From a virus (lineage: Duplodnaviria; Caudoviricetes), in IMG/VR virus record IMGVR_UViG_3300006045_001036: a DNA stretch of 64,000 nt. One strand, written 5' to 3'. The translations under genes were made by a program, and so were the position numbers. Position 1 is the stretch's first letter; the number at the start of each line of letters is the position of its first letter. Below are positions 1-61,193 of this stretch, one piece after another. The notes beneath the pieces are model-generated. The model saw nothing but the letters and a program-made list of their open reading frames with translations, was not told the origin of the DNA and did not search any database.

Positions 1-184
1 AGGTGATTGCTTGAGAGTCTCTCAACGCCTTCTGACCACTGGCTTTCAGTGCTATATTCGCTGAAGACAGTATCTTAGCATGACGTTTGACCGCAGCTTG
101 GTCGGCGGACTGTATCTTGGTCATACCAGCTTTTTGACCTTTGTGTAAGGGCTTCTGTGAAGTCCCACTGTTAATAATAACCAT
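1..184 (-). CDS. 5' part of probable major capsid (or head) protein with propeptide; runs off the window
   Basis: ATG at 184 with AAGGAG RBS; hand translation MVIINSGTSQKPLHKGQKAGMTKIQSADQAAVKRHAKILSSANIALKASG...; directly downstream of protease/scaffold, the usual MCP position. Confidence 0.5.
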   Translation of the reverse strand, partial: MVIINSGTSQKPLHKGQKAGMTKIQSADQAAVKRHAKILSSANIALKASGQKALRDSQAIT

Positions 185-214
185 AGTAATTCTCCTTATA
201 ATTATTGGTTGGCT

Positions 215-1753
215 TTAGCCTTTGAAGTTGGTGTAATACTCTTCATCGGTTTCATCAATTTCTTTCACAGCTTGTGGTTGGATAACCATGCTCGGAACGA
301 CAGCACTGTTAATTTTCGTAATAGAGGCTTGTCGTCTTTGCTGTGTAGAAGCTGTGTCTACGGCAGAACGAATTTGAGCGGGGGTCGCTGAACTTTCGAT
401 TTTGACGCTCGCTACATCGACACCGTAAGCATCTCCGAGAAGTTGCAAATAAGCTTTTTTGAATTCGTCGCTTGTTTGCGGTTGTGTCTTCGCAGTCCTC
501 GGGGTTGTCCTTGTAGATGACGAAGACTGAATACGTTGGGATTGTTTGCTTTGACGTTTTATTTCGCCTTGAGCCGTCAACAGGTTTTGACGTGTCTCAT
601 TTAATTCAGTGGTTACGGTCTCAAGACGACTCGACAGGTTTCGATTGTCTCGAGCAGACGCCGCTATTTTTGTTCTCGACTTCTGTTGTGTCTCTTGTAA
701 CTCTTGAATTTGTTTGATTAATTCTTCATTCTGAGCCAGAAGTTCAGCGTTGTACGCAGCCACTTCATCAATCTCGGCTTCAGACTTACGTCGGAATTTA
801 TCAAAAACCCCGCTATCGACATTTGCCTGTCTATTTGCACGTAACGCAGTTCGGAGTTCTGATGTTAACTTTACATTCTGTGAACTAAGTTGTTCTACTT
901 CGGAATTAAGTGCTGCTATTTGTGCTTCTGCGTTCGCTGTTTGATTAGCGGAAGAAGTAATTCGCCGTTGCAATCTTTCATTCTCTTGTCGTGAAGACCT
1001 GAGTTGAGTTGTCTTCCGAGCCAGTGCAGCACTCACTGCCGTTAATCTATCGTCGTCAATTGTGGAGTTTTCAACAATTGTTTGTGCCGCAGACTCAATT
1101 CTTACCTCTGCTAATCGTGTGTCAATTAAGTCGTTGATTAATTTACTGTTAGGGAGTTTGCGGAGTGCGGTAAGAGCTGCCGAGCTTTCTATCTTCGGTA
1201 TTTCAGTTTTTGCACTTGCTAACAGTCTGCGGTAGTTCGGATTTTCCGAACTTGCTATTGCTACGATATCGGGAATAGCGTTAGGGAACGCAGGAAATTG
1301 AACAACGTCAAAACCGTTGCATATGAATGTTTCGGGGTCAACCTCTCCAATTGGTTCGCCTGTAGGAGTATCACCCCACCCACGTTCAGATACACCGAAG
1401 CGGGTTCCGCCTTTACAGTAATTGGCTATTAACCGCCCTGTCGGGCAATCAATTATGTCGAACTGAGCCCAGACTTCGCCGTCATCTAATACCTTAGCAT
1501 CGTTCAACCGTCCACAGGAATTGGCGGGGTTCGGCTCATCTTCTTCTGGATGTCCAAACCACATTAAGTGACATTTCCGTTTAAGACCGTCAATAAACCG
1601 TTCAGACCTAAAAGCATTTAACCAAGCACCTTTAGCGAGATAAACACCATTCACGTTATCGACATCGGAATCACCTGAGGTTCCTTCAATACGCATAACC
1701 ACTCCGGGCGGTAAATTATCGGTAATTGTCTTAAATTCCGCTCTCTTGCTCAT
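215..1753 (-). CDS. Prohead maturation protease (T4 gp21-like) fused to long coiled-coil scaffold
   Basis: GHPE, GVSERGWG (cf. gp21 GVSSRG) and FDVVQFPAFPNA motifs in the N-terminal ~165 aa; coiled-coil C-terminus; follows portal. Confidence 0.85.
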   Translation of the reverse strand: MSKRAEFKTITDNLPPGVVMRIEGTSGDSDVDNVNGVYLAKGAWLNAFRSERFIDGLKRKCHLMWFGHPEEDEPNPANSCGRLNDAKVLDDGEVWAQFDIIDCPTGRLIANYCKGGTRFGVSERGWGDTPTGEPIGEVDPETFICNGFDVVQFPAFPNAIPDIVAIASSENPNYRRLLASAKTEIPKIESSAALTALRKLPNSKLINDLIDTRLAEVRIESAAQTIVENSTIDDDRLTAVSAALARKTTQLRSSRQENERLQRRITSSANQTANAEAQIAALNSEVEQLSSQNVKLTSELRTALRANRQANVDSGVFDKFRRKSEAEIDEVAAYNAELLAQNEELIKQIQELQETQQKSRTKIAASARDNRNLSSRLETVTTELNETRQNLLTAQGEIKRQSKQSQRIQSSSSTRTTPRTAKTQPQTSDEFKKAYLQLLGDAYGVDVASVKIESSATPAQIRSAVDTASTQQRRQASITKINSAVVPSMVIQPQAVKEIDETDEEYYTNFKG

Positions 1754-2075
1754 CTAATAACACCTCATTTATAATCGGTAGTAGTTGCTCTTGCAAACTG
1801 CGATAATCCTCATCTTTACATCGAGGGTACGTTGCTATAAGTTTACCGATTCTATCTATACCAAGGATATAATACAACATATGGCGGTCACTTTCCGACA
1901 TAGCAGGATTTTTCTCGACAAACAACCAATATCGAGTAACTAAAGAAGATAACGCTTTCCAAGTCGGTTGGTTTAGAGAAGGAGCTTCATCCTTGATTGC
2001 GGTGACAAGTTTTCGCCAGTTCGTCGAATTATAGCCACGTATCATATTGAAAAACATTTTACAGTGGTCGTTCAT
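1731..2075 (-). CDS. Hypothetical protein between portal and protease
   Basis: 114-aa ORF, RBS AAGGAG, overlaps protease start. Confidence 0.65.
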   Translation of the reverse strand: MNDHCKMFFNMIRGYNSTNWRKLVTAIKDEAPSLNQPTWKALSSLVTRYWLFVEKNPAMSESDRHMLYYILGIDRIGKLIATYPRCKDEDYRSLQEQLLPIINEVLLDEQESGI

Positions 2076-2090
2076 ATATGCAACTCCTTT

Positions 2091-3683
2091 CTACATCTCT
2101 CCGCCTTCACCGCTCTTTACCTCGACTGTCTTCATAGACGCCATCTGAGCAGTGAAGATAGGCAATATGCGTTCGGTTATTTCTTTAACAGCTTTAACTC
2201 TTTCGTCATGCTCTCCGATACCCAGTTTGTCGCACAAATCAAGTAACGCTTTGGCGTTTTCGATTGCCTGTTGTACCTTGTCTATGAGGAACGTATCAAG
2301 CAACGACAGTGGAGCATTCATGCAGAGTTCGTACTTGCCGATATAATCCTTGTACCCATTTCGTTCCAACATCAAATCAATACCACGAGTAATTCCTGTC
2401 AGGTATGCCACTTGACCTCGTTGTACACGGCGGTTGAATCTGGACGACATTTGTGTCAGCGTTGTTCCCGAAGCACCAAGACCGCCCTCCCCACTGTAGT
2501 TCATCTGTTGTTTGGGGATAGCAAGAGCAGCAAGTTTCTTGTTAAGGTTGTACTCTACGTCAGCTATATCACGAACATTGACATCGCCTCCGAGCGTTTT
2601 GACATCAATCACACCTTTACCATCACGAGTAAGCGAGTATATTGTGTTTTCAAGAGACTGTGGATTTGCAGTACTCTCAGCAGTACCGAGCGTTGTAGAC
2701 AGAGTCATGTCTTGCTCCATCTTGTTTTTCAACGCCATGAGAGCTTTTTGAGCAGCGTCTTTACGCATGGTTTTGACTTCGAGGGACACAAGACGTATAA
2801 CAAGACTTTTCGTCAGTTTGTTAAGGAGCAGCGAGTCTTGCATCAAGTTGTCTATAACAGTCGGTGTGTATGCTGCCTCAAGAGGCGGCACATCGACCTC
2901 GACACCGTATTCGATTTCGTTGCCGTCTTGGTCTTTGAGATACACCGATAATCCCGAGCTAAGTGATTTCAATTGAACATGAAGGTAACTTGCTGGCGGG
3001 TATTTGTTAGCCACACCTTTGTTTGTCGAGTGTAAAAACAGCATAGAACCGAGCTGAGAGCTTTCGACTTGAGAGCGTTTATCAGGTCCCAGTGAATAGA
3101 AACAAGCGGTTTCTCCTGTTTCTTTGAAGGTCAGCTCTACCACACTGTTTTGAAGTTTGATGTCTCGTGTATTCCATGAGAAGTATTTTGTTCGCTCTCC
3201 ACGGTTATCAAGTCGAACCAACCCGCCGACGCTCATGCGGTCACGAAACACCTCCGTCGATGGAAAACAAAATCCTCCGTGAGTAAATAAGACTCTCATA
3301 TGCCCCCAGCCATATTCTTGAAGGCGTAATTCATAATCAACGATATCTTGAATATGCTTCTGAATAATTTCGTTATCAGATGAAGCCCATACAATCTGAC
3401 CTTTCTCGTTAGGAGATGTAGACTCGTCCGCATACATATCAAGAGCCGTGGAAACGTCAGGGTCGGACGCCATTTGCTCAATAGCGAGATAACGAGATGT
3501 GAAATTGCTCATCAGAGCTGACAGAGGCTGAAACCCTGCTAAACTGGCGATACTGCCGTTAAGTAAGTCTTCAGGGACACTCGAACTCTCAGGCTTCCCG
3601 TATTTTTGTTCCCTCATATTACGGCGATTTTCAGCCGACCGTCTGTACCAATCACCTATATTACTTAAGATAGGAATTTTCAT
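2091..3683 (-). CDS. Portal protein (T4 gp20-like)
   Basis: MASDPDVSTALDMYADES and LGGDVNVRDIADVEYNLNKKLAALAIPKQ motifs; 530 aa; near terminase. Confidence 0.85.
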   Translation of the reverse strand: MKIPILSNIGDWYRRSAENRRNMREQKYGKPESSSVPEDLLNGSIASLAGFQPLSALMSNFTSRYLAIEQMASDPDVSTALDMYADESTSPNEKGQIVWASSDNEIIQKHIQDIVDYELRLQEYGWGHMRVLFTHGGFCFPSTEVFRDRMSVGGLVRLDNRGERTKYFSWNTRDIKLQNSVVELTFKETGETACFYSLGPDKRSQVESSQLGSMLFLHSTNKGVANKYPPASYLHVQLKSLSSGLSVYLKDQDGNEIEYGVEVDVPPLEAAYTPTVIDNLMQDSLLLNKLTKSLVIRLVSLEVKTMRKDAAQKALMALKNKMEQDMTLSTTLGTAESTANPQSLENTIYSLTRDGKGVIDVKTLGGDVNVRDIADVEYNLNKKLAALAIPKQQMNYSGEGGLGASGTTLTQMSSRFNRRVQRGQVAYLTGITRGIDLMLERNGYKDYIGKYELCMNAPLSLLDTFLIDKVQQAIENAKALLDLCDKLGIGEHDERVKAVKEITERILPIFTAQMASMKTVEVKSGEGGEM

Positions 3684-5272
3684 AACAATACTCCGTTATC
3701 TGCCAAAAACTTGTCTTCTGATACCATAGGGATTTTGAACGCTTTCGCTTTTCTCATCTCAGAGCCTATTTGCCCCGACATCAAACCGCCGACAACAAAA
3801 ACTTTCGTTTGTTCTGTCACGTTTTCGTGAATTACTCCGCCGTGGTCGGTGATTAAAGCTTTTACCTTTTCAGGTTTGCCGCAACGGAAGTTTCCTGAAA
3901 GATACACCGACACACCAACAAGCGTATGAGGTTTTTCTTCCTTGTTTTTTACTACGTCGGTAACTTCGATAAGCTCTGATAAAGTTTTCCACTCGGCAAT
4001 ATTCTCGGGTGTAATCGCCCAGTTGACAAAAGCGTTTTGTGCCGCAGACGAAAGACCCGCAGAATTGTGGAAAGCTCTTGGCTTATTAATGAGATAATCG
4101 TTGAATATTTTTACACTTCCCCTGCTTGCGTCTACAATTGTGTTTACATCACTGTTGGATAATCCGGGGATTTCCAAACTCCATAAGAGCTTGAGAAGAG
4201 ACACCTCAAGTTTCTCGGGGAAATTACGAACATATTCTTTTAACCAAGCAGGGGTGAAATTGTTTATACTCGTTTCTTGACCGAGCTTGATAGCATCGGA
4301 TAACGATTTCACTTTGTTTTTCGCAGTCATGCCGAGAATAGTTTCCGAAGTAAACGCTATTCCTAACTGGGTAAGAAAAACGTCAAGACGTTGGTATAGC
4401 TGCGATGTGCAGTTGTAATTACCGCATATCGTTGCTCCGTGACCGACTGTCAGTTTGTCACCACACAGAGGGCATTCTCTTTTCAGAGGCTCGGCGGGAG
4501 AGCCAACAGTACGAACAACATTGTCAAGTGTATCTACGATAAACATTTGGTTGACACCGAGGTTATTACGCAGAATATACGAATAGCTCTTAGTCAGCAC
4601 AACATCTTTAGTCGAAGTAATCAACTTGCCTATGAGCTGTCCGTTCGCTTTATAATCCAGTTCGATTTTCTGTATACGAAGCAAACGGTAAGGGATTCGA
4701 GAAGTTAAGAATTGCTCTTTTCCTGTATTGGATTGCATTACGGTTGTAATCCGACCAGGGTATTGAGATAATTCTTTCGATATACCGAACTCGGCTATAG
4801 TAGCGTTGTAATACTCAAACACACCTTGTTGTTCGGTGGTATCGTTACAAGTAACGAATGACAGGGTTTTGAACCCCATTAAGTTAAGCAGTTCAATGTG
4901 GTCGGTTTGTCGGTTTAATATTGTTGGACACATCAAGAACTTGTGCGGGAAGAATACCCGAGACACGTCTTCTTGCAAGCTCATTGTCTGAGCTTGCTCG
5001 TTCATGTCGCCGAATCCGATATGCGACTTCGGTGTGAGTACCCCCAGCACTTTTGAAGTCCCGCCAGTCAACCCGATTGCATGAGGGATATTTTCAATCG
5101 TATCAAGATTGATAATCTTTTCGCCGTATTTTTCGTGGTTCTGTTCTCCTACAGTTACTCCGATAAGCAACCCTTCTTCAGAATACTCGGCAACAACGTC
5201 TATGCCGAAAGGGTGATAGTAAGCGGTCATTCCTGTACGGAACACCATTTTCTTTACAGGTGTTTTAGTCAT
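3680..5272 (-). CDS. Degenerate NAD-dependent DNA ligase-like protein with Zn finger and C-terminal BRCT
   Basis: CPLCG...CGNYNC Zn finger, LLWSLEIPGL HhH-like segment, BRCT (LVGVSVYLSG...GG...VTEQTKVFVVG...KAKAFKIPMVSE); no KxDG motif. Confidence 0.75.
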   Translation of the reverse strand: MTKTPVKKMVFRTGMTAYYHPFGIDVVAEYSEEGLLIGVTVGEQNHEKYGEKIINLDTIENIPHAIGLTGGTSKVLGVLTPKSHIGFGDMNEQAQTMSLQEDVSRVFFPHKFLMCPTILNRQTDHIELLNLMGFKTLSFVTCNDTTEQQGVFEYYNATIAEFGISKELSQYPGRITTVMQSNTGKEQFLTSRIPYRLLRIQKIELDYKANGQLIGKLITSTKDVVLTKSYSYILRNNLGVNQMFIVDTLDNVVRTVGSPAEPLKRECPLCGDKLTVGHGATICGNYNCTSQLYQRLDVFLTQLGIAFTSETILGMTAKNKVKSLSDAIKLGQETSINNFTPAWLKEYVRNFPEKLEVSLLKLLWSLEIPGLSNSDVNTIVDASRGSVKIFNDYLINKPRAFHNSAGLSSAAQNAFVNWAITPENIAEWKTLSELIEVTDVVKNKEEKPHTLVGVSVYLSGNFRCGKPEKVKALITDHGGVIHENVTEQTKVFVVGGLMSGQIGSEMRKAKAFKIPMVSEDKFLADNGVLL

Positions 5273-5338
5273 TGGATAGGTTTCCTTTCAACTATTAATA
5301 CTTAGAGAGCTGTGTATAGCTCTGTTTTATAAATGCTA

Positions 5339-7471
5339 TTACATAACGAATGTATCATCCGAGCCGACTGTAACACCCATATTACGCCATACATCATTCC
5401 TTGGGTCTCTGTCAAACTGGTCTTCATCCAACGCTCCGATTATGCAATCAAGTCCACTTTCATTGATGAGAAAATCATCATACCCGAAGAAACTGTCTGC
5501 CATTTCTTCCATTGTTTCAGGTGTACCCCAAGCCTGAGGATTGTGTTCAAAGTTGACCGTGTGATAATCCGCCACGTCCATCTGCAGTGTCTCAATCATT
5601 TCATCTGCCCCGATTGATATGCCCGACAGCTCCGATAACACCGCACCCCAAGTCGCTCCGACAACAGCGTCCGCAATATCCTTGGATGAACCGTGTCCAT
5701 GGTCTACTTTTCTTCCCCCGCTTACTGTACGTAACCCTTGAAGTTCACGTTTCAAAAGTATAGATGACAATAATAAAATACGGCGGTCGGCAAGGAGCCC
5801 TTTGAAAATCTTGTGTCCGTCAATTGTTCGGTCTACAGAACGGTAAGTAACCTTAAAACCGTTCTTCATCAATGTTTGCCGCATATCTTCCGACAGATGG
5901 GCGTTGTCGGCGGAAATCTCTTCTATATGAAATCCTCCATCCCGCAATGCGTAGATGAATTTTCGAATTTTCTCAAAATCTATACGGTCTTTCTTAGGAG
6001 CTGCGATATCGACTGCGAAAACTTCCTCGTACAATGTCTCGTTATACCAGTCTCCTTCTACGTTCTGTACCTCACGCTCTCCCGCAATAACTATACCCGC
6101 TATCCCAAAACGGTCTCCGCCTTTACCTTTCTTATCACCCTTGATTGCTGCGTCAAGGTGAATGAACATAGGACAGTCACGGATTTCCCGAGGAATTCCC
6201 CGCCAGTTGAAATAATCAATGATTTCACCCTGAGATGTAATTCCCATTTCTACAACATCCTCAGGGAACGGATTTCCTCTCTGGGTATGCCAGCAAGTTT
6301 CTAACAACTCCATGCTGTAATAAGCGTATTCGCCTTGTACAGCTATTCCGGCAACGTCCATCAGTGTTTGTTCGTAGTTACTCTCAAACTCTATACGGAG
6401 GGCTTCGGGCGGGTAAACAAGTCTGTAACCTTCGACAAATTCAAGTTGGTTACGATATTCGGGGGTATCAAGCTCTTTCGGAACCACAAATCCTTTACGA
6501 GATAAATCACCTACTGCTACGGTGCAAGTTGCTTTGTTGCCCGAAGTGTCCCATTTATCCCAAGGAATTACTTCCCATTGAGCTTTATCAATTATTTTTG
6601 CATAGTCTTTCTCGTTCTTTATCGCTTCTTCCATCTTTGCTTCCATAAAGTCCATGTCAGCGTTGTTTTTAGAAGAAATCGCCCAAATACAACCTTCGAC
6701 AATACCGTTGTATCGGATAGTACCACGGATACGAGTGTTAATTGTGTCAAAGGCATCGGACATTTTGGTTTTCTCAGTCCTGACATCACGGTTGCCCTCT
6801 GTCCCAAAGTTCATCTCGTCGCACAAAGCACAAAAGACTTGCATACCGAGAGCGTGACGTCCACCTACTGCTGCCGAACCAGTTCTAAGTCTTATAGCAC
6901 GGTTATTGGGGATATATTTTGGATTTGCTTCGGATTTTGTGAATTTCCCTTTTTTGTTGAACCACGGCGAAGTTATCAGCATATCGTTGAATTGGCGGAA
7001 CGCAACACCCTCTGCCATATCTTTTGTCACGTTGAAAAATAAAAATGTAATGACCGAAAAGCTTGAAATTTTGTATCGTCTCTGCGGTTTATCCATACAG
7101 ATAAGAATGTGCAGCATATACGCAATACCATAACAGGCGAGTGTGGTTTTACCTATTCTCGTCGCCCCAGTCACATAAATCTCGGAGTACTTACACCGTG
7201 TTGCACCTCTGCCGCTGAATATCTCTTTGAGTTGCTCCCACCATTCTTCGTATATCTCGTTTCCGTAGTCGGAATAGATTCCAAGATATCGTTCGTCGGT
7301 TAGGAAGGTTTTAAGGTCAGCAGGTTGTTCTTTGAATCCAACACGTTTTAGCTGTTCGAGGGTAAAGCTTTTACCACCGACAGCTATTTCATCCAAAATC
7401 GCCTGAAGAATCTTTGCTTCTTCAGGCGAAAGGTTTTGTAATAATGGATTTTTATTCGATAACTTCGCCAT
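5339..7471 (-). CDS. terL: Terminase large subunit
   Basis: Walker A TGATRIGKT, Walker B ALCDE, RNase H-like nuclease IHLDAA ... KVDH...SKDIADAV. Confidence 0.9.
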   Translation of the reverse strand: MAKLSNKNPLLQNLSPEEAKILQAILDEIAVGGKSFTLEQLKRVGFKEQPADLKTFLTDERYLGIYSDYGNEIYEEWWEQLKEIFSGRGATRCKYSEIYVTGATRIGKTTLACYGIAYMLHILICMDKPQRRYKISSFSVITFLFFNVTKDMAEGVAFRQFNDMLITSPWFNKKGKFTKSEANPKYIPNNRAIRLRTGSAAVGGRHALGMQVFCALCDEMNFGTEGNRDVRTEKTKMSDAFDTINTRIRGTIRYNGIVEGCIWAISSKNNADMDFMEAKMEEAIKNEKDYAKIIDKAQWEVIPWDKWDTSGNKATCTVAVGDLSRKGFVVPKELDTPEYRNQLEFVEGYRLVYPPEALRIEFESNYEQTLMDVAGIAVQGEYAYYSMELLETCWHTQRGNPFPEDVVEMGITSQGEIIDYFNWRGIPREIRDCPMFIHLDAAIKGDKKGKGGDRFGIAGIVIAGEREVQNVEGDWYNETLYEEVFAVDIAAPKKDRIDFEKIRKFIYALRDGGFHIEEISADNAHLSEDMRQTLMKNGFKVTYRSVDRTIDGHKIFKGLLADRRILLLSSILLKRELQGLRTVSGGRKVDHGHGSSKDIADAVVGATWGAVLSELSGISIGADEMIETLQMDVADYHTVNFEHNPQAWGTPETMEEMADSFFGYDDFLINESGLDCIIGALDEDQFDRDPRNDVWRNMGVTVGSDDTFVM

Positions 7472-7919
7472 TCTCGTCTACCTCGATTCCTTCAACAACC
7501 TGCGTTGCTTCACCGAGTATTGCAGAAGCAGCGTCGATTATCTTGCCTCGCTGTCCTTCTTCCATAGTTTCAAACTCATTTGTCGAACCCTCGATTTCAA
7601 TCGGCTCGTTGGGGTTGAATCCCATACATTCGAAAGTAGTTTTCAGCGTTTTATCCGTTACAGTCACCGCCTTGTTTAACTCACCTTGAGCAGCAAGGCA
7701 GACTTGTAAAGCTTGCGGAGCATCCTCGACAGTGTCGAGGTTTGCCATAACGCTCTGTGTACTTTCTACGAGTTTTGTCTCCACCAGTTCTCGGGCTTGG
7801 TCGAGCCGTTCCACACGCTGTATTTCGTTAAGCACACGCTGTTTTTGAAAATTCTGAATGGTTGTCAGAAAATCAGCGTTGCTCATGTGGTTTGCATTTT
7901 TCACAAATGTATTACTCAT
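7452..7919 (-). CDS. Helical protein, possible terminase small subunit
   Basis: 155 aa, immediately upstream of and overlapping terL; position only. Confidence 0.4.
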   Translation of the reverse strand: MSNTFVKNANHMSNADFLTTIQNFQKQRVLNEIQRVERLDQARELVETKLVESTQSVMANLDTVEDAPQALQVCLAAQGELNKAVTVTDKTLKTTFECMGFNPNEPIEIEGSTNEFETMEEGQRGKIIDAASAILGEATQVVEGIEVDENGEVIE

Positions 7920-8241
7920 CGTCTTCTCCTTCTGGCTCGGGAGCGGGGTTCATCTCTTCGAGCAGACTCTCCGCCGACACAGCGATTGAGAATAAATCGG
8001 CGACAAGTTTCGCAGCCTGTTCCTCAAAACTCGAAAACTGCTTACCCGCAATCGCCAAACTTAGCTTTTCACCAAGTTCGTCACAACTTCCCGAAATTAA
8101 CCCTAATGCAGCAGTTGCTGACATTGTGTTATCGCCGTCCGCCGATTGGATAGCGACTTGAGAATCGACAGGAGCGGTAACTTCTGCCAAAACCTTGGTT
8201 TTTCTTCTCGGAGCTTTTGTTCCACTGTTGATAATTTTCAT
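7912..8241 (-). CDS. Small acidic protein, candidate head-internal protein
   Basis: N-terminus MKIINSGT...IQSAD resembles that of the ORF at 1-184. Confidence 0.6.
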   Translation of the reverse strand: MKIINSGTKAPRRKTKVLAEVTAPVDSQVAIQSADGDNTMSATAALGLISGSCDELGEKLSLAIAGKQFSSFEEQAAKLVADLFSIAVSAESLLEEMNPAPEPEGEDDE

Positions 8242-8245
8242 AATA

Positions 8246-8584: not shown

Positions 8585-8585
8585 A

Positions 8586-9159: not shown

Positions 9160-9422
9160 ACCGTAAATACCTCACTTCCCGAGAAAATCAATTTGCTATA
9201 GAATGGATAAACGAAGAAGTTTTGCCGTTTCATTGCAATCGTTATGTCTTACAAGCCATTCGGGACAGTATTGAGTATTCCGTGCAACACAGTCGGTATC
9301 TTGTCCGCTATCCGCCTGAATTGGAGCGTGGGGCGAAAACTCGCTGTGCTGTTTTAACGAAACTGCTTCTTGTTGCATTAGCACAGAAATTTGAGTGGGA
9401 CTGGCGGTATTATCCTAATTAG
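9111..9422 (+). CDS. Hypothetical protein on the opposite strand
   Basis: 103 aa protein-like ORF filling the 260-bp gap; its TAG overlaps the TAA of the convergent gene (TTAG 9419-9422); no clear RBS. Confidence 0.45.
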   Translation: MQKSNPYNLDYFYFPSHRKYLTSRENQFAIEWINEEVLPFHCNRYVLQAIRDSIEYSVQHSRYLVRYPPELERGAKTRCAVLTKLLLVALAQKFEWDWRYYPN

Positions 9423-10372
9423 TCCTTGTTGTTTTTGAGTTCTTGTTTTGCCGTAGCGGAAATGATGTCTTTAATCGCAACATGGAAATTATCGACATTT
9501 TCGTTTTTCGTAGTAATCGTTGTTTCTTCTGAAGAATTGCCGACAACACAGCGGAAATCTGCTGAGAACCCGCCTTTGTCATCCATGGCAGTTATAGACG
9601 GTATTGTGAGAACTAAATCGTAATCTACCGACGTGCTGTTGATTTGACGAACATCCGCCTCTATCCTAATCGTGTTCCCGATTGCTTGTTTGGTTACATT
9701 CTTCAGCGTTATCCCCCGAGGGCGGAATTTGTCGATATCAAGCTTTGTCTCAAGCCATTCGATTGTGTCTTTCTTCGATTTTGATTTATTTTCAGCAGAA
9801 GAATTGATTTGAGCAGGATTCGGGTCAGCGGGATTTGTCGGCTCAGGTGGCGGAGTTTCATCGGAGTCAACCTTGTTCGTACTGTCTTTCATTCCGCTTG
9901 GCTTCATGGACGGTGCAGCGTGGTTATTGGTATCACCAACACGCTGAACATATACGAGAGCGTTTTCTCCTTCGTCAATCCGCTCGAAAGCCAGCATAGT
10001 GAAATTCCATGCCTGTATCCCTCTCCACATAGGATTAATAACCTTGCGTAAATCGGTGTCTGCCGAGAACACTGCGTAAAGTTCGCCGTCTTGCTCGTAT
10101 ACTCTTTCGAGTCCACGCAAATCATTATCGTTTTTAAGTTGATGGTATATCGAGTTAACCCAGTCGCTGTCAAACACAACAGGACTTTTCGACGTGCGGA
10201 CGTTCACCGACGCATTCCCTGACATTGCCGAACTTTTGACCTCGACACCAAGACGCTGCAGAGCCGTCGCACGTTTAGACGAAGCAAGCAGCTTTGTAGT
10301 CTTATCCTCGCTCTTAATCGAAGAATAAATCTTAGATTTTGACATGAAATCAGCAGTAGATACTATTTTCAT
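9419..10372 (-). CDS. Hypothetical, candidate head-associated protein
   Basis: 317 aa; several IxSS-type motifs (IYSS, LASS, VKSS, INSS). Confidence 0.65.
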   Translation of the reverse strand: MKIVSTADFMSKSKIYSSIKSEDKTTKLLASSKRATALQRLGVEVKSSAMSGNASVNVRTSKSPVVFDSDWVNSIYHQLKNDNDLRGLERVYEQDGELYAVFSADTDLRKVINPMWRGIQAWNFTMLAFERIDEGENALVYVQRVGDTNNHAAPSMKPSGMKDSTNKVDSDETPPPEPTNPADPNPAQINSSAENKSKSKKDTIEWLETKLDIDKFRPRGITLKNVTKQAIGNTIRIEADVRQINSTSVDYDLVLTIPSITAMDDKGGFSADFRCVVGNSSEETTITTKNENVDNFHVAIKDIISATAKQELKNNKD

Positions 10373-10653: not shown

Positions 10654-10754
10654 AGTTATAATACCTCCTTAGAGCTTTATAGAGAGTTTATAGTTTCATT
10701 TAATAAATGCTATAATTAAGTCACCAATCTGTAAGAATGATGGCAAACTATGCC

Positions 10755-10783: not shown

Positions 10784-10812
10784 GATGCAAAACCTTGAAA
10801 GGATGTACACAA

Positions 10813-11085
10813 ATGTCTATTATATCTAAAGACCCCACCCGCTCTGAGGAACTAATTCGAGAGATTCAAAGAACCGAGATAGAACCTGATTTTTCCAAGA
10901 ATTTACACTTGCAAGAACTCAAAGAGCGAGCCGAGAACGGCAATGAGTTAGACGAGATAGCATATAGAGACGAGCTTCACCGTCAAACAGAAGAATTCTT
11001 CAAAGAAATCGAAACCACCCCCGAATACCAAGAAACCGACACAAAACTTCAAGAGCTATGTGAGCAGTTTGCTGACGAGTGCTAA
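10813..11085 (+). CDS. Acidic helical protein, paralogue of the C-terminal half of 50394-50966
   Basis: ATG 10813 after AAAGGA; EPDFSKN..LQELKERAENG..EIAYRD..FKEIE..EY.E.D.KL.ELC aligns with the 50394 protein. Confidence 0.75.
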   Translation: MSIISKDPTRSEELIREIQRTEIEPDFSKNLHLQELKERAENGNELDEIAYRDELHRQTEEFFKEIETTPEYQETDTKLQELCEQFADEC

Positions 11086-12251: not shown

Positions 12252-12642
12252 ATGATTAAGATTAAGAGTTCAAGCGGTGTCGGGGGGGGGGCGAATTTGT
12301 TCGTCTGCCAACAACGAGTTCAACGACATAAAGGCATTTCTTGAAGATATTCGCAGTCAACAAGGTTCGGAGGACAGATACGTAGCAGAGACCAAAGGAA
12401 ATCATACTGTGAATATTCCTGCGAATGCACTCGCACAAGTTGTAGATAAGTTCTTCGGAGCGATGTTAGTTGTTGCTGAGGAAACAGGGGCAACCTACGA
12501 TGCTTATGTCAACGGTTTCAACTATTGGTTGAAACTCTCCGAGAAACGTATCAACGACACACACGGTGAAAGTTTGGGAAACGCTTCAACAGGATTTATC
12601 AAATCGGCATTGAAACAGCAAGTGGCTTATGAAATGAGATAG
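12252..12642 (+). pseudogene. Gene frameshifted in a G10 tract (phase-variable or error)
   Basis: RBS AAAGGAG + ATG 12252 (MIKIKSSSGV) is out of frame with the 12277-12642 ORF; G10 at 12282-12291; G9 restores a ~129-aa protein. Confidence 0.7.
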
Positions 12643-12713: not shown

Positions 12714-12756
12714 TTTATAATATTAAGCATTTATTTTGCAGGAGGTGATAAATTTC

Positions 12757-20965: not shown

Positions 20966-21532
20966 TTACAGTTTCCCCAACCATTTATCTATGCCATCAT
21001 AGGCATCATCGTAGTTATTATAAGTAGCTTTTGCACAACCGCTTACTACGATATTATGCAGTTTCCACCTTTGCTTTGGATTTCCTGTCAATTTTGCTGA
21101 CTGTGCTTGATGCTTCTTGTTATCTTGTTTCTCCAAAGGAGCTTTCTCTGCGTTTGTTTTTCTTGCATGGCGAAAATGATTAGATAATCGAAATATGATT
21201 AGACATTTACTCGTGCTGTTGGGCGGGAAAAAGTACCAATAGTGAGACATCCCGCTCTGCTCGCTAATGACATAATCAAGTGGCTCAATGTTATGAGTAT
21301 AAAACAACCCCATAACACTTTGTACAAAATCTTCGTATTCGCCTAATACGAAGTTTTCAATGACAGCTCCCGATGCTATCTTAGTCGTAGGATAGGACGC
21401 CGCAATCGGGACAGTTTTGTCTAACCCCTCCAACTCCACATCTACCACGATAACATTTTCCAACGATATGCCGTGTTGTGTAGCCAGTTGCTGTATTGAT
21501 TTTGCACTGCTTAATAATCTAATCATTATCAA
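20966..21532 (-). CDS. Moron-like gene with MIRLLSS leader
   Basis: Own promoter and terminator; SHYWYF...FRLSNH motif. Confidence 0.7.
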   Translation of the reverse strand: MIMIRLLSSAKSIQQLATQHGISLENVIVVDVELEGLDKTVPIAASYPTTKIASGAVIENFVLGEYEDFVQSVMGLFYTHNIEPLDYVISEQSGMSHYWYFFPPNSTSKCLIIFRLSNHFRHARKTNAEKAPLEKQDNKKHQAQSAKLTGNPKQRWKLHNIVVSGCAKATYNNYDDAYDGIDKWLGKL

Positions 21533-39643: not shown

Positions 39644-40231
39644 TTAACCGCCATACTCTGCTCGGTCAAGCCACTCTAAGACTGAAATCGTCAAAGTTAA
39701 CGTAATCTGAGCAACAGAACCGCCGACCATGTCGTTTTGACCGTAGTCCACATTACCAAGCCATACACCTCTTGCACGGCACACCGCTCTCGGCATACCT
39801 TGACCGTCGAAACGGCTGTAAGTAAGTGTTTTAGCGTAGATAGAGGGTGTTCCTTGTTTACCGCTACGAGGATTATAAACCGCTTTGTCAAGTTTCTTAA
39901 CAGTTTGGATAACGTCAGGTTCACAGAACCAGTTAACTGTCCAAGAAACGTCATTCCACGTAGTTTTTCCGGGTACTTTGTACACGCCGTGTACAAAGTG
40001 TATTGGGATTACCTCTCTTTGTGAAGTAAACGGACTAAGTTGAGCCGTTGAAAAATCAAGGTCTTCGGCATAAGATGTTGCGTCGTTACCCGATACGTTG
40101 TGAAGCCGAACTTGGAACTGGTTCACAGTGAGTGCGACATATGAGTCGTTCTCAAACATATGGTTCGTATTTAGGTACGTAGGCGAATACTCACTCGGGG
40201 GAGTGTAGACATCATCAGGATTAAAAGCCAT
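39644..40231 (-). CDS. Tail tube protein (gp19-like)
   Basis: KVPGKTTWNDVSWTV; follows sheath. Confidence 0.8.
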   Translation of the reverse strand: MAFNPDDVYTPPSEYSPTYLNTNHMFENDSYVALTVNQFQVRLHNVSGNDATSYAEDLDFSTAQLSPFTSQREVIPIHFVHGVYKVPGKTTWNDVSWTVNWFCEPDVIQTVKKLDKAVYNPRSGKQGTPSIYAKTLTYSRFDGQGMPRAVCRARGVWLGNVDYGQNDMVGGSVAQITLTLTISVLEWLDRAEYGG

Positions 40232-48100: not shown

Positions 48101-48421
48101 CTACGTCTGTTTTAATCGTTGGTATTGAATTCGTGGGTTGTTCCTCACTTCTTTCCAAAAGTGCTTACCTGCCGACGGTTTTGTAAAGAAAGCACGGTAC
48201 ACCTTATCAGGCACGTCATAATAAACATACGTTGCACTGGGTACACCGCCTTTGTGGAATCTGACAAGCATGGTTCGAGATGAAGCATCATAAGCCACAG
48301 CGTAGATATTCGACGAATCAACTTTTCGGAAAGTCTTAGACAGCTCCCGAGTACTGACCGCCGAATTAATCTGCACCGCCGTTATTAAGTGACCTCGATA
48401 ACACGACAGTAATCTTATCAT
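48101..48421 (-). CDS. KTSC domain protein with MIRLLS leader
   Basis: VDSSNIYAVAYD...LVRF...YVYYDVP...SAGKHFWKEVR. Confidence 0.85.
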   Translation of the reverse strand: MIRLLSCYRGHLITAVQINSAVSTRELSKTFRKVDSSNIYAVAYDASSRTMLVRFHKGGVPSATYVYYDVPDKVYRAFFTKPSAGKHFWKEVRNNPRIQYQRLKQT

Positions 48422-50139: not shown

Positions 50140-50400
50140 TTATCCATCGAGGGTGTCAGGGTCAGTGTAAGGGTCGGCATCGAGGTCGTGTTTGTCGGAA
50201 ATTGCAGTGTTAATTCGGGCGAGTGTTTCTTCTCCGCCAAGCACATAAATATCTCGGGCAAATTCTCCGAGGACTTCTTTAAGTAAGGATTGCAAGGAGT
50301 TTAGCATTTCCGCCGTGAGTTTGTAGTCATGCTCTTTAGCCACGGCAAAACACACTCTGCTAACTGCTTCCTTGACTAATGTGTCGAACTTCATCAACAT
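50140..50400 (-). CDS. Hypothetical protein
   Basis: 86 aa, AAGGAGG RBS. Confidence 0.55.
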   Translation of the reverse strand: MLMKFDTLVKEAVSRVCFAVAKEHDYKLTAEMLNSLQSLLKEVLGEFARDIYVLGGEETLARINTAISDKHDLDADPYTDPDTLDG

Positions 50401-50966
50401 CCTCCTTCGGCAATTTGTTTTATATTTTCAGCGAAACCATTTTGAACGTATTGCCAAGCACCTTTACACTCTCTTTGGGCTTCATCAATTTCTTCGTGTA
50501 TCTCGCCATATCGCTTACATAACTCTGTCAACTTTAAGTCGTTTTCACGGTATTCATCAGTATCTTCGATTTCTTTAAAAGCTTTCTCATTCTGGTTATA
50601 CAGCCAATCTCTATACTCAATTTCGGCGGTCTCGTCGCCGTTTAATGCTCGTTCTAAAAGTGCTTGCATAGCGGGGTCTTTGTCGAGTTCGGGTTCGGGG
50701 GATTTTTGAATATCTATTTCTAATCTCTTACATTCCTCGTTAAACTCTTTAACTCTTACCACACAACCGAGATAATGAATTATGCGGTCTACCAAATCGC
50801 TGTGTATCAGCTTGTCAATAATTTCAATCGAAGTTGTGTCAAGCTCTCTTAAATGTTTTACGGTTGATTCCGACAGCCCTGTATAGCGGCATACGACTTG
50901 GGAGTCTGTGTCGGCATTTGCATCATCGGCTTTTATGCCGTCGCAAATCTCTATATCCTTATTCAT
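50394..50966 (-). CDS. XRE-repressor C-terminal-like protein lacking the HTH
   Basis: DTDSQVVCRYTGLSESTVKHL resembles the segment that follows the HTH in clostridial XRE regulators. Confidence 0.55.
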   Translation of the reverse strand: MNKDIEICDGIKADDANADTDSQVVCRYTGLSESTVKHLRELDTTSIEIIDKLIHSDLVDRIIHYLGCVVRVKEFNEECKRLEIDIQKSPEPELDKDPAMQALLERALNGDETAEIEYRDWLYNQNEKAFKEIEDTDEYRENDLKLTELCKRYGEIHEEIDEAQRECKGAWQYVQNGFAENIKQIAEGGC

Positions 50967-51990: not shown

Positions 51991-52044
51991 GTTATTATCC
52001 TTTCACAAGAGAAAGGCGAAACTGTTAACCGTTCCGCATCTCGT

Positions 52045-53650: not shown

Positions 53651-53653
53651 TTT

Positions 53654-55693
53654 TTAGAATTTCAATTTTGAATAAGTCAATTTGCCGTTTTCATAACCGT
53701 CGATTTCTGAAGTTCCTTTAACAAAATTAATGTTTGGGTAGTGTTCATTCTCACGTGTTTCGATAAGGAGCATAAGTGAATCAGCTAACGCAGTTCGTGG
53801 ACACTCGAAAAACGTAAAAGAACGTTTCTTATCGTCACGTTTACCCAGATGTTCACAGTAGATTGCAGTGCCTCGTTGTGGGTTCTTTCGATACTTGGAT
53901 TCCACAACATATATCCGCCATATGTTAAGAGATGGAGCGGTGGTCGGTACAGTTTCTTCTTGCGGATATACTCCAACAAAATCTGCAAAGCCTTGAAATC
54001 CATTATTGCATTCATGGAATGCTGTTATCGGAACGCACTTACTGTTGACAATCACATAGTCTATGTCTTGAAAACTGGGAGAATCATCCAACTCTGTTAA
54101 TTGTCGAGTAAATTCAGTGTTGCACTTTCGACATTTGTAGAGTAAATTAGATTTTTCTTGTTTGTTGTCAAGTTCCCCTGCGTATAGTTCACCATTTTTG
54201 GGTTTGTTCTTGGGGACAGAGAGCGGTGCAATCGCTTTTGCTTCGTAATCATTGTCGTTCTCTTTAGACATATGTACAATACGTTGTACATACCGTTGCT
54301 GTCCTTTGCGAGTAACACAGAAAAGGCAACCATCGCCACCACGGGCATATAAATCAAATATCAGTTCTAAATCGGCTTTCGACACACCTCGAATAGCGGA
54401 AATATCTTCTAACAAGCTACACAATATTTCGCCTTTGTGTTCTGTTAATATTCCCTCGACAATAGCCAGCATATTTTTAACTTTGTCAGAGGCGGGTTTT
54501 TCTTCGTTTCCAGTTAGCCAATCAAGTGAAACATTGTATTCACGAGCGATTTGACAGAGAACAGCATGAGAGGGGATGCTTCGGTCTTTTTCCCAGTTTC
54601 CTACCGTAGCCTCGCTAACGCCGAAAACTTCCCCGAACTTCTTTCGAGACAGGTCGGCATCTCTACGGAGTTGTTTCATATTACGAGACAACGGTGAATC
54701 TGTCGGCATAGGGAGCGTGGACTTCCTATACATTCGGTTTTTACCTCGCCTCGGTTTATTCGAAAGCCTATCCGCCAGTATAGGGAGAAGTTTTTGTCTT
54801 GCTGATTCCTCAGATATACCGAGAAGATAATCCGCAGACACACCGAACATAGTACACAGTGCAACGAACTTTCCCAATCCAGGATTACGACCTGTTTCAT
54901 ACTGCGACACCGATTGTTTCTTTCCGCCGATATATTCACCAACTTCGGTTTGCGACAAATTGACCCGCTCTCTTTGGTTTTTCAGTCTTTCGGCAATGGT
55001 AGGAAAATCTACCTCGTGTTCAAAGAAAGTTTTGTCGTCTTTCAACCCTAATAGATAGTCGGCAGATACATTGTAGACAATCGCCATTTCGGTAACAATT
55101 TCAATCGAAGGAATCCATGTCCCGCTAATGTAGCGTTCTAAAGAAGCGTTTCCAACACTCAATCGAAAGCCGTTCAATTCTTTGCCTTTCAAGTCCTTTA
55201 TTCGCTGACCAAATATATCTGACTTTAACATAAGCACCTCCGTTTCAGAATTATCTAACAACCAATCTGCCGAGATTTTGAAATGATTACACGTGTTGAT
55301 AATCGCCACTATTTGCGGCTCAGTTGTATTTGTCTCATAATCACGAACTGTGCGTTTCTCCAACCCAAGGATTTCACCCATTTCCTGTTGGGTTAACTCA
55401 TTGTGTTCACGCAAGGCTTTCATCTTAGTAGCGAATGTCGGCGTCGGTTCATCGAATATCGGCATCCCTATATGCCGAATGCCTAACAACCAATTGAATG
55501 AAGTTTCACACATTTTGACCACGGTTCGTAAAGCTTTTACTGTTCGAGGCGGTATACCCTCTTTTTCCCATTTCGTAACAGCAGTAATGCCGAGACCGAG
55601 CTGTTGACCCCACTTTTCATAACACAACCCTTTGCGTAAAAAAGCAATACGTTCGCCGAATGCGGGAAGTCTTGTAACTTTGACTTTGCTCAT
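53654..55693 (-). CDS. Five tandem XRE-family HTH domains plus Zn-binding domain
   Basis: Five units ending SFNWLLG, SADWLLD, SADYLLG, SADYLLG, SLDWLTG; YKCRKCNTEF domain. Confidence 0.85.
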   Translation of the reverse strand: MSKVKVTRLPAFGERIAFLRKGLCYEKWGQQLGLGITAVTKWEKEGIPPRTVKALRTVVKMCETSFNWLLGIRHIGMPIFDEPTPTFATKMKALREHNELTQQEMGEILGLEKRTVRDYETNTTEPQIVAIINTCNHFKISADWLLDNSETEVLMLKSDIFGQRIKDLKGKELNGFRLSVGNASLERYISGTWIPSIEIVTEMAIVYNVSADYLLGLKDDKTFFEHEVDFPTIAERLKNQRERVNLSQTEVGEYIGGKKQSVSQYETGRNPGLGKFVALCTMFGVSADYLLGISEESARQKLLPILADRLSNKPRRGKNRMYRKSTLPMPTDSPLSRNMKQLRRDADLSRKKFGEVFGVSEATVGNWEKDRSIPSHAVLCQIAREYNVSLDWLTGNEEKPASDKVKNMLAIVEGILTEHKGEILCSLLEDISAIRGVSKADLELIFDLYARGGDGCLFCVTRKGQQRYVQRIVHMSKENDNDYEAKAIAPLSVPKNKPKNGELYAGELDNKQEKSNLLYKCRKCNTEFTRQLTELDDSPSFQDIDYVIVNSKCVPITAFHECNNGFQGFADFVGVYPQEETVPTTAPSLNIWRIYVVESKYRKNPQRGTAIYCEHLGKRDDKKRSFTFFECPRTALADSLMLLIETRENEHYPNINFVKGTSEIDGYENGKLTYSKLKF

Positions 55694-57923: not shown

Positions 57924-57991
57924 TTGTTTAGTTTCCTTTCTTAATTGAGAATACAAAAGTAATGCGGAGACCTTTAATCTCCGCAACAAGA

Positions 57992-59470: not shown

Positions 59471-59548
59471 AATATCCTCACTTTCATCGTTTCCGCCGAG
59501 CGGACACTTTGGTTGCTTACAAAATAGTAATGCGTTAAGTGTTATAGT

Positions 59549-60067
59549 TTAGATTACAACGGTGTACAAGATTGCCTCGGGAAACTTCGTGCCTCGGAAT
59601 ATCTGTTGAAGGTCTTCGGTCTTAATAGCTTTGGCAAAGCAACGAACTTGATAACCACGAGTTGTCTTCCAGATATAGAGGAAAGGATATTGAGCGTAAT
59701 AACCGAATTCGATTTCGCACTTCTTGTCGTTGTTGCCGTATAATTCGTGTCTCATCCAATTCTTGTTCATTGCTTTGATTTCGATTGTCTTACCGCTTGA
59801 AGTAGTGAATGCGGTATCGGAGGTTGTAGCAAGGGTAGGGGTGGTGTCGTAACAGTAGGTCGATTGATTTCCACGTTTCCCTTTGACGCACTGACCGTCC
59901 GTAACTTCGCCGTTGAAGAAATTCTGGCACTTGATTTGAAGTTCTCTGGTTACGGTTGCATGGTTGAAAGCGAGGAATTCTTTAATGGTGAACGCTCCTT
60001 CGGGAATGCTGCACAAGCCGAGAAAACCGATTGCAATGTTCTTATGATTAATTCTTATATTATCCAT
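59549..60067 (-). CDS. Hypothetical protein
   Basis: 172 aa with own leader motif. Confidence 0.65.
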   Translation of the reverse strand: MDNIRINHKNIAIGFLGLCSIPEGAFTIKEFLAFNHATVTRELQIKCQNFFNGEVTDGQCVKGKRGNQSTYCYDTTPTLATTSDTAFTTSSGKTIEIKAMNKNWMRHELYGNNDKKCEIEFGYYAQYPFLYIWKTTRGYQVRCFAKAIKTEDLQQIFRGTKFPEAILYTVVI

Positions 60068-60145
60068 TCCATTTCACCTTCTCCACTGGCTCGGGACTCT
60101 CCCTCGCTCACACTAAAGTAATGCTGCTTCTAACAAAGTTAGGAG

Positions 60146-60418
60146 TTATACTGCTGACACAATGATTTGCTTGTCATTCGCCCAGTTAGCGACTCGGTGA
60201 GCAACAGCGAGCATAGCGTTTTTAATCTCGGCAGTGTGAATTCCTGCGTAGGGAGAGAAGATTGTACGGGTTGTGGAAAAACAGCTTGTCGAGTACAATG
60301 TTCCGTCCTCGGATTTCATAAATCTGCAATATGTGTCAGCTTTAGCACAGACAAGACGGAATTCCTCGGGAGTCAAGGAAATGTTTGCAATCTTAATCTT
60401 CTTCATATCATTCTCCAA
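60146..60418 (-). CDS. Hypothetical protein
   Basis: ~85-90 aa with own leader motif. Confidence 0.6.
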   Translation of the reverse strand: MENDMKKIKIANISLTPEEFRLVCAKADTYCRFMKSEDGTLYSTSCFSTTRTIFSPYAGIHTAEIKNAMLAVAHRVANWANDKQIIVSAV

Positions 60419-60518
60419 TCTCTATTGGCGGAGGACTTCCCCCGCTCTCTACAAAAGCAATGCGAATTGTTTTATAGTTTCGTTGCATAGTTTCACCGCC
60501 CCGAAGAGCGGTGTTAAT

Positions 60519-61193
60519 TTATTGATAATACTCGTCCAGTCCGTCATCGGAGAAATCGTAGTCATCGTTATAAGCAAGTTCCATGACTTTCTTACTCCTT
60601 GTGTTTGTTCCCTTGAAAATGTCGGTACGACCTCCCGACCTTTCAGAACCACAGCGACCGCATTCGTTGTATACTCCCTTTCTTTGCCCTGCACACCACG
60701 AAGCCCCTTTAGGCTGATTCGTCCCCGCCGAATTGACTTTGTTTCCTTGCATTATCTTCATAAGAGTTACCGCCATCATATCAAAGAATGTCCAACCGTT
60801 TGGCAGAGGGAAATTCTTCAAAGCCCCTCTATTTGTCAACACTTCCAAATCACTTGCTATCTTTGTAGCAATCTTCTGTGTCATATTCTCATCGAACTTG
60901 TTTCCCGACAAATCGTCTTTATTAAAGTTCCGTGCGACAATTGCAGCAATCAAGTCCGCTCTACTGTTCTGAGGTGGTTTCGCAGTTTCCATGGAATCTT
61001 GTACTTTGGTGGAAACAGCGTCGGCAAGGTCAATAAATTCTCTTTGTTTACTTCCGTTACCGCCAAGCATATCTACATAAAAGGTAGACCCCGCTCCTTC
61101 GATATCGTTATCAATTTCGGTACTGAGCAACGGCTCCCATATCTGGGGTTTGCCAACAGAATCAATCTTTATTGAGCTTATTAATCTTATCAT
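60519..61193 (-). CDS. Hypothetical protein with MIRLISS leader
   Basis: 224 aa; leader like 20966 and 48101 genes; acidic tail. Confidence 0.65.
   Translation of the reverse strand: MIRLISSIKIDSVGKPQIWEPLLSTEIDNDIEGAGSTFYVDMLGGNGSKQREFIDLADAVSTKVQDSMETAKPPQNSRADLIAAIVARNFNKDDLSGNKFDENMTQKIATKIASDLEVLTNRGALKNFPLPNGWTFFDMMAVTLMKIMQGNKVNSAGTNQPKGASWCAGQRKGVYNECGRCGSERSGGRTDIFKGTNTRSKKVMELAYNDDYDFSDDGLDEYYQ

Follow-up and report, generated by a model that had tools for sequence, protein, structure and literature searches.

What purpose is served when phage genes that are otherwise unrelated open with nearly the same few amino acids? The question is raised by a stretch of 64,000 nucleotides (here called the window) from the IMG/VR virus record IMGVR_UViG_3300006045_001036 (Duplodnaviria; Caudoviricetes), in which scattered genes begin with short leaders such as MIRLLSS, MIRLISS and MKIINSG (Table 1). 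A first-pass annotation of the window quoted seven such N-termini, all of which are present in the sequence, and read them as addresses that send diverse cargo into the phage head, by analogy with the capsid-targeting sequence (CTS) of T4. The analysis presented here argues that the leaders are probably tags that load proteins into the head and are processed there by the prohead protease, and that the window phage appears to use a variant of the T4 capsid-targeting system with a Ser-type P1.

The window is a portion of a 219,530-bp contig in a public protein collection, where its protease-like protein and capsid fragment are found with identical sequence. The phage is represented by metagenome assemblies alone, and the leader scan covered the 64,000 nt of the window, the remaining 155 kb of the 219.5-kb contig lying outside it. 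No close DNA match to the window was found among 50,697 phage records. Judged by its genes, the source is a novel T4-like myovirus with a T4-type head module, made up of a portal, a gp21-like protease fused to the scaffold, and a gp23-type capsid protein. The nearest cultured phage found is Streptococcus phage vB_SagM-GXN1 (GXN1, PQ819873), which has 27.9% identity to the protease in an alignment spanning 56% of the query (a separate tblastn gave 26.8% across 343 columns) and 21.6% to the capsid protein. Next come Bacillus phage SP-15, Tenacibaculum phage PTm1 and T4-like phages of Rhizobium.

The leaders each consist of one copy of a [RK]-[IL]-x-S-[SA]-type motif placed right behind the start (MIRLLS↓S, MIRLIS↓S, MIKIKS↓S, MKIVS↓T and MKIINS↓G, with the arrow at the predicted cut; also MIRLLSC). 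In MIRLLSS, MIRLLSC, MIRLISS, MIKIKSS and MKIINSG the motif occupies residues 4-7. Residues I2, R3, L4 and S6 are common to three of the 79 window proteins (P = 0.00026, column permutation), and a loose form of the motif begins at residues 2-5 in 7/79, against 1.9 expected from its internal rate. A six-frame search for ATG-led M-x(1,2)-[ILV]-x-S-[SAGCT] followed by 40 aa or more gave eight occurrences, six of which are gene starts with a ribosome-binding site. Second copies of the motif stand behind several leaders, namely AIQS↓AD at residues 31-34 of the 7912-8241 product, QINS↓A at 18-21 of the 48101-48421 product and PIAA↓S at 41-44 of the 20966-21526 product; the pieces removed by cuts at these sites would be 20-43 residues long. 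Two near misses were left uncounted, the portal at 2091-3683 (MKIPILSN) and a 780-aa tail-region protein at 21585-23927 (-) (MAIIKSIN), in which aliphatic-x-S is followed by N or I.

The starts of the genes at 8241, 10372, 61193 and 21526 are identical in public gene calls. The last of these had been placed at 21532, which is an upstream TTG; the leader read there is real, and its ATG, with a GAGGTGA ribosome-binding site, lies at 21526. The gene at 12252 (+) had likewise been read as a single protein running from MIKIKSS to ICSS. Both peptides exist, in two frames split by a run of ten G (G10) at 12282-12291: the ATG frame with MIKIKSS is 30 aa long, and ICSS belongs to frame +1 on the far side of the run. 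The frames of 12252 and 12277-12642 would join with one G fewer, by frame reading only, and the G10 run could be an assembly error, a length variation or a site of programmed frameshifting. Functional searches returned little for these genes. Four of the five non-capsid leader proteins have no function in PHROGs, Pfam or the ESM Atlas, where the best matches to the 21526 and 61193 products (TM 0.42 and 0.34) are not usable, and the 12252/12277 gene has none in PHROGs or Pfam. The exception is the 48101-48421 protein, wherein a KTSC domain (PF13619; residues 35-95; E 3.3e-15; 56 bits against a curated cut-off of 25) stands behind the MIRLLSC leader, as the first-pass annotation had it.

The likeness of the leaders is not a matter of descent of whole genes. 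All-against-all blastp gave no match at E <= 1 between any two leader proteins, which bears out the earlier description of them as otherwise unrelated and led to the rejection of paralogy. The DNA upstream of the leader genes is not conserved, and for this reason a DNA repeat, or a promoter extending into the coding sequences, was rejected as the source of the likeness. Furthermore, the Ser and Leu codons vary between copies (e.g., AGC and TCG). With unlike upstream DNA and differing codons, the likeness of the leaders thus lies at the level of the peptide.

An indication of what the peptide may do comes from the 215..1753 gene. Its product combines a gp21-like protease (residues ~1-160) with a coiled-coil scaffold (~161-512) that holds many copies of [RK]-I-x-S-[SA]. 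In the scaffold half, residues 161-512, [LIV]-x-S-[SA] occurs 10 times against 1.70 ± 1.24 (0/5000 shuffles reach 10), at sites that include vrIESA, rrITSS, tkIAAS, qrIQSS, vkIESS and tkINSA. Across 78 window proteins [IV]-x-S-[SA] is found 44 times against 24.1 ± 4.9 (largest shuffle 40), most of the excess coming from the fusion protein, the capsid fragment and the 9419-10372 product. An unbiased tally of the residue pairs that follow aliphatic-x in the scaffold puts SS/SA at the top in the window phage and both of its homologues, P0002 (84% identity) and P0003 (59%), which keep 10/12 and 9/12 of the scaffold sites, respectively. In P0003, 24 of 35 motif positions are identical, compared with 137 of 307 other scaffold positions and with 4 of 10 at the free middle position. 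The same tally in the fusions of SP-15 and PTm1 finds ES commonest (8 and 9 times), and the GXN1 fusion has 26 [LIV]-x-E, 12 of them followed by Ser.

The protease half is identified by tblastn matches of the fusion to genes annotated as gp21-like "prohead core scaffolding protein and protease" (E 2e-6 to 9e-5). In hhalign against T4 gp21 (E 0.0018), GHPEE aligns with NHPPR and GVSERGWG with GVSSRGLG, the T4 motifs that we take to hold the catalytic His and Ser.

A second concentration of the motif is found in the capsid protein, which the first-pass annotation had counted among the dispersed non-structural genes. The 61-aa fragment at 2..184 matches P0004, a 512-aa PF07068 protein encoded on the 219,530-bp contig, with 100% identity, and P0004 aligns by hhalign to T4 gp23 (E 6.1e-05), so this leader gene encodes the major capsid protein itself. 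Residues 1-95 hold 6 [LIV]-x-S-[SAG] against 0.56 ± 0.71 (0/5000 shuffles reach 6), while residues 96-512 (417 aa) hold none. Within the first 92 residues the motifs are INSG, IQSA, ILSS/LSSA, ITSA and IQSA (including KIQSA and KILSS). In the near-identical capsid proteins P0157 and P0158, four of five sites are kept as written, and the fourth site reads IFSA in P0157 and IFAA in P0158.

The alignment of this region indicates which bond would be cut. In a MAFFT alignment of capsid proteins, I90-Q91-S92↓A93 falls in the columns of T4 gp23 L63-T64-E65↓A66; the corresponding residues are LLE↓S for GXN1 and MFE↓T for SP-15. Since the propeptide removed from T4 gp23 is 65 residues long (PMC5694885), the alignment points to a cut after Ser92, with Ser in place of Glu. 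The protease thus probably cuts after Ser, and sometimes Ala, at [RK]-[IL]-x-S↓[SA], and not after Glu. The T4-type rule of cleavage C-terminal to Glu in [LI]-x-E does not appear to fit this phage, as the enriched motif has Ser/Ala where T4, GXN1, SP-15 and PTm1 have Glu; by its motif, the window phage is a variant of the T4-type system rather than a typical member. The experimentally defined phage sites given in the sections drawn on here all follow Glu, as in T4, phiKZ (S/A-x-E) and SPN3US (A-x-E) (PMC5694885; PMC10052503; PMC9026906).

If the leaders matter as peptides, they should be recognizable in relatives, and the first-pass annotation had named their loss from homologues as grounds for abandoning its proposal. 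They are mostly kept. P0006, with 70% identity to the 21526 product, has MRILSS at its start and retains PIAASYPTTK; elsewhere its first 40 residues diverge. A KTSC homologue of 70% identity (P0007) keeps MIRL and VQINSA, and another of 44% (P0018) starts MRIISA. The 34-residue N-terminal extension of the 48101-48421 protein is missing from most of the short KTSC proteins aligned; P0018 has its own tag. Among 145 Met-led representatives of the 150 best KTSC matches, 12 start M[ILV][RHK][LI] against 0.3 ± 0.6 in internal-segment controls, and 23 fit basic-aliphatic-x-[SAC] against 4.8 ± 2.2, at least 5 of these 23 being the domain's own V-x-S-S start. A 12-kb IMG/VR contig retrieved via P0008 (L010) carries a KTSC gene starting MIHLNAK, neighbors starting MKKLNSA and MLSITSSA, internal RLNSS/RLNSA sites, and 14 [LIV]-x-S-[SA] against 5.0 ± 2.1. 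Searches of viral and metagenome contigs with the protease or with P0018, and of genome contigs with the protease, yielded no further related DNA.

A KTSC subfamily from many metagenomes (P0008, P0013, P0017, P0019, P0028, P0040, P0049 and P0112) starts M[IL][RKH][LI]N[SAC][KR]R.PKPSG. Behind this start, linkers that are first very basic and then acidic lead up to the KTSC domain, and by its sequences the subfamily looks like a recurrent family of tagged cargo.

GXN1 provides a comparison from a phage with a Glu-type scaffold. It shares the protease-scaffold fusion and the gp23-type capsid protein with the window phage, and five of its proteins start with one leader, MRL[IV][RK]LxE[DS], that ends in its own scaffold motif. 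It differs in that the motif is L-x-E↓S and the leader MRL[IV][RK]LxE, and its leader proteins have no homologues among the tagged proteins of the window; when every window protein was compared with GXN1 by tblastn, core genes alone matched. In the two phages where both can be read, the type of leader therefore appears to follow the type of scaffold motif. The GXN1 record is thinly annotated (40 features in 176 kb), and its large terminase matches at two places 60 kb apart, 61244-61957 and 122715-123824.

The closest known counterpart is the CTS system of T4 (IPI-III and Alt, with gp21 processing of gp22, gp23, gp24, gp67 and gp68). Both phages have a T4-type head module, many cut sites in the scaffold and capsid propeptide (PMC5694885), a short N-terminal leader that is common to otherwise unrelated proteins and ends in the protease motif, and scattered genes for the proteins concerned, as reported for the T4 head-internal proteins (PMC9026906). 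The register is also the same: the T4 proteins gp67 (MEGLIE), gp68 (MLLIPE) and gp24 (MAKINE-LLRE) start the motif at residue 4, as the window leaders do. Further T4 N-termini are those of gp22 (MLKE-QLIAE) and gp21 (...LLIE). For the T4 protein IPIII, 10 N-terminal residues are enough for packaging, with residues 4 and 7 important for targeting and 8 and 10 for processing, and the CTS has been proposed as the way in which T4-like phages load varied proteins (PMC9026906). Three differences stand out: P1 is apparently Ser (or Ala) in the window phage and Glu in T4; protease and scaffold form one polypeptide here and come from two genes (21 and 22) in T4; and the leader has 6-7 residues here and 10 in T4. 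Because the motif is enriched in the scaffold and capsid propeptide, the parts that such a protease destroys, and the same motif makes up the leaders, the analogy with T4 is well founded. To this extent the capsid-targeting proposal of the first-pass annotation is partly supported; one supposed cargo is the capsid protein itself, and the injected anti-defence effectors that it envisaged are conjectural.

The proposed mechanism would run as follows. The gp21-like protease, fused to the scaffold, would cut the scaffold at about 10-12 sites and remove the 92-residue capsid propeptide at 5-6 sites. Unrelated proteins would carry one copy of the same motif at residues 4-7, behind Met and two further residues, often with a second copy 20-45 residues on. 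The leaders would bring these proteins into the scaffold core of the prohead for subsequent trimming by the protease. Once mature, they would remain inside the head, and some, e.g., the basic KTSC protein, may exit with the DNA. The KTSC domain has been called DNA-binding (PMC9503650), which would suit a basic internal protein and proves nothing.

Several observations weigh against loading into the head as the role of the leaders. On the side of the protease, the hhalign probability of the match to T4 gp21 is only 14.8%, a Pfam search gave no protease family for the fusion protein, and a PDB sequence search gave coiled-coil noise alone. On the side of the leaders, the loose N-terminal pattern has low specificity: its Glu analogue matches 5/84 T4 early-region proteins, and in GXN1 the loose pattern is not enriched (9/236 against 7.2 expected). 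Moreover, the P0007 start, MIRLSFV, breaks the L-x-S register, one of the three sites in the KTSC protein is the domain's own V-x-S-S-N, and the leader is 6-7 residues long compared with the 10-residue T4 CTS that was tested experimentally. The other points against each favor a different explanation.

The best-surviving of these, which we consider rather unlikely on balance, is that the leaders are real protease sites but the tagged proteins are parts of prohead assembly (core, vertex or scaffold helpers like T4 gp67, gp68 and gp24) that are cut up or trimmed at maturation rather than delivered to the host. The products of 7912-8241 and 9419-10372 may be core or assembly proteins of the gp67/gp68 kind and not injected effectors. 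Both genes lie within 2-8 kb of the terminase-portal-protease block. The predicted mature part of the former is small (76 aa) and acidic (pI 4.05), and T4 gp67 ends in a long acidic run, with gp67 and gp68 carrying the motif at residues 4-6. The latter has six [LIV]-x-S-[SA] sites along its whole length (15, 29, 45, 101, 189 and 303; 1.02 expected; 1/2000 shuffles reach 6), as expected for fragmentation, and is a candidate core or internal protein that is cut into pieces. Other observations speak against the explanation. The 48101-48421 (basic, KTSC) and 60519-61193 genes lie far from the head genes, and the sites in their products are near the N-terminus, which fits trimming better than fragmentation, the exceptions being the V-x-S-S-N of KTSC (34), VPSA (60) and the site at 153 of the 61193 product. 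In addition, leader-bearing KTSC proteins recur in other phages with varied middle parts, which looks like a variable set.

It is improbable that the tag serves some other destination or fate, such as tail or baseplate assembly for the 21526 product or a degradation signal, with its likeness to the protease motif due to chance. The 21526 gene does lie among baseplate genes, so a tail part is possible, and it shares a promoter-like motif with the tail tube gene. Neither 21526 (p 0.08) nor 61193 (p 0.06) has a significant excess of sites of its own. The tag is nevertheless common to three proteins in three gene neighborhoods, and T4 also scatters the genes of its head-internal proteins, as noted above. 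No hydrophobic stretch of signal-peptide length follows the tag, for which reason a signal peptide was rejected. A Prp/L27-type leader, as occurs in staphylococcal phage 80alpha, was dropped because the motif differs and the head module is T4-type.

Least probable of all is that the shared start is a feature of translation or mRNA unrelated to the capsid, e.g., an AU-rich ATGATWAGATTA favoring initiation, or a relic of recent 5′-end copying. The three MIRL genes are nearly identical in their first 12 bases, i.e., the first four codons, and all use AGA and TTA, although within their codon families each accounts for only 23%. A contribution from selection on the RNA or from recent copying is therefore conceivable, and AU-rich codons behind the start codon are common in well expressed genes. 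It counts against this explanation that codons 5-7 vary at synonymous, non-adjacent positions (TTA/CTG/ATA, AGC/TCG) while the peptide is kept, that homologues keep the peptide type in other spellings (MRILSS, MRIISA, MLRLNS and MIHLNA), that the leader motif is the one enriched in the scaffold and capsid propeptide, and that GXN1, with its Glu-type scaffold, has Glu in its leaders too.

With loading into the head retained as the preferred role of the leaders, the proposed change in specificity of the protease invites comparison with the assemblin-scaffold fusion of herpesviruses (pseudorabies virus [PrV] pUL26). There, too, the protease is fused N-terminally to the scaffold, and the sites have the form aliphatic-x-small↓small, as in the PrV sites YLQA-T and VQA-S (PMC4498786). 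The first scaffold site of the window fusion, VAIAS↓SEN (residue 166), directly follows the protease domain, in the manner of the herpesvirus release site. The systems differ in that herpesviruses have two or few cut sites and the window scaffold about a dozen, and in that the herpesvirus enzyme has a Ser-His-His triad, whereas one His and one Ser can be aligned here, to T4 gp21. Leader-tagged cargo is undescribed for herpesviruses in the parts of the source used here (PMC4498786). Fusion and form of the motif agree with a herpesvirus-type specificity, and the bond predicted to be cut comes from the one capsid protein alignment; such a specificity is a possibility.

The head proteins of the giant phages phiKZ, 201phi2-1 and SPN3US also have propeptides, which are mostly longer than 100 residues and have a motif that ends in Glu. 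The window capsid protein and protease stand closer to those of T4-type phages: in tblastn they match T4-like and related myoviruses rather than phiKZ-like ones. One likeness is found in the SPN3US paralogues gp53 and gp54, which have an identical 15-residue N-terminus containing the motif (PMC5694885).

A more far-reaching account, which we regard as unlikely when taken as a whole, joins these elements. A clade of uncultured large T4-like phages (the phages of the 219.5-kb contig and of its two JGI relatives, together with those from which L010 and the MIRLSCRR/MLRLNSRR KTSC proteins derive) would have switched the P1 of a gp21-type protease from Glu to Ser/Ala, as in herpesviruses. The minimal 6-residue tag, Met-x-basic-aliphatic-x-Ser, would be one substrate motif; cargo would dock in the active site of the inactive fusion and be freed by the first cut; and the G10 tract would switch one cargo on and off.

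The remaining features of the window are collected in Table 1. The minus strand carries almost all of its long ORFs.

Table 1. Leader genes, head, tail and regulatory genes, and promoter-like sites of the window; arrows mark predicted cuts.
Feature	Coordinates	Strand	Remarks
5′ end of gp23-type major capsid protein gene	2..184	-	MVIINSGT...KIQSAD; remainder past the left edge of the window
Prohead protease-scaffold fusion, 512 aa	215..1753	-	phrog_207 head maturation protease, E 4.9e-14
Portal protein	2091..3683	-	phrog_213, E 1.7e-25; tblastn to GXN1 portal region, E 2.7e-29
Large terminase subunit (weak profile match)	5339..7471	-	phrog_2, E 5.1e-05; tblastn to GXN1, E 1.3e-35
109-aa leader protein	7912..8241	-	MKIINSGT...VAIQS↓AD; leader like that of the capsid protein
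317-aa protein	9419..10372	-	MKIVST...IYSS...VKSS
Promoter-like AGCATTTAT	10703-10711		upstream of the 9419..10372 operon
Leader gene broken by G10 run	12252..12642	+	MIKIKSSSGVGGG in frame 0; GGGRICSSANNEF (12277-12642) in frame +1
186-aa protein	20966..21526	-	MIRLLSS...VPIAA↓S...KIASG; within baseplate gene block
Promoter-like AGCATTAAT			own copy of the 20966..21526 gene
Baseplate wedge-like protein	23952-26138		profile search
Tail tube	39644-40231		profile search
Tail sheath	40268-42952		profile search
M23-peptidase/lysozyme protein, 789 aa	45228-47597	-	profile search
106-aa basic protein, pI 10.2	48101..48421	-	leader MIRLLSCYRGHLITAVQINS↓A (MIRLLSC...QINSA), then KTSC domain
Triple-HTH regulator	53654-55693		profile search
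224-aa protein	60519..61193	-	MIRLISS; second motif KVNSA at 153-156; among small genes without assigned function

The motif AGCATTWAT occurs six times in the window against 1.3 expected, at 5329, 10703, 12726, 13456, 21550 and 40250. Five copies stand just upstream of correctly oriented genes, namely the tail tube gene, the first gene of the portal block (at 5272), the gene at 12736 (+), the 21526 leader gene and the 9419-10372 operon. On this distribution, AGCATTWAT is a candidate core of a phage promoter. In a variant form, CGCATTACT, the motif is also found ahead of small genes at 59470, 60067 and 61506.

Other observations concern genes outside the set of leader proteins. The M23-peptidase/lysozyme protein has a lysozyme/endolysin-like region at residues ~93-185 and an M23 metallopeptidase-like region at ~214-338; its gene closely follows the tagged KTSC gene and one for a membrane protein, and it is a candidate virion-borne wall hydrolase. 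Between terminase and portal, a 530-aa ORF at 3680-5272 (-) has a match to the NAD-dependent DNA ligase family that is confined to its C-terminal half (phrog_3869, residues 258-526, E 1.1e-23). A pair of small paralogous proteins, 10795-11085 (+) and 50394-50966 (-), stands on opposite strands 40 kb apart, with 47% identity over 85 residues (E 2.3e-20). Finally, the large tail-region proteins at 18563-20191 and 21585-23927 (-) have in common a segment of ~100 residues (35% identity, E 6e-09), which is probably a fibre or baseplate domain.

CTS-like tags are established for T4, and the gain from the window phage would lie in breadth and changed specificity rather than in a new principle. If cleavage after Ser/Ala is real, this would be the first phage protease of the gp21 type to show a herpesvirus-like specificity, as judged from a limited search of the literature on prohead proteases and their cleavage motifs, which returned Glu-type enzymes only. 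If this is true, two branches of the assemblin family would be linked by function besides fold. A tag of 6-7 residues would also be a small handle with which to load foreign proteins into capsids. The phage head interior is where the anti-restriction and host take-over proteins of T4-like phages are located, and the cut-site rule together with the tag would allow the proteins inside the heads of uncultured phages to be predicted from sequence.

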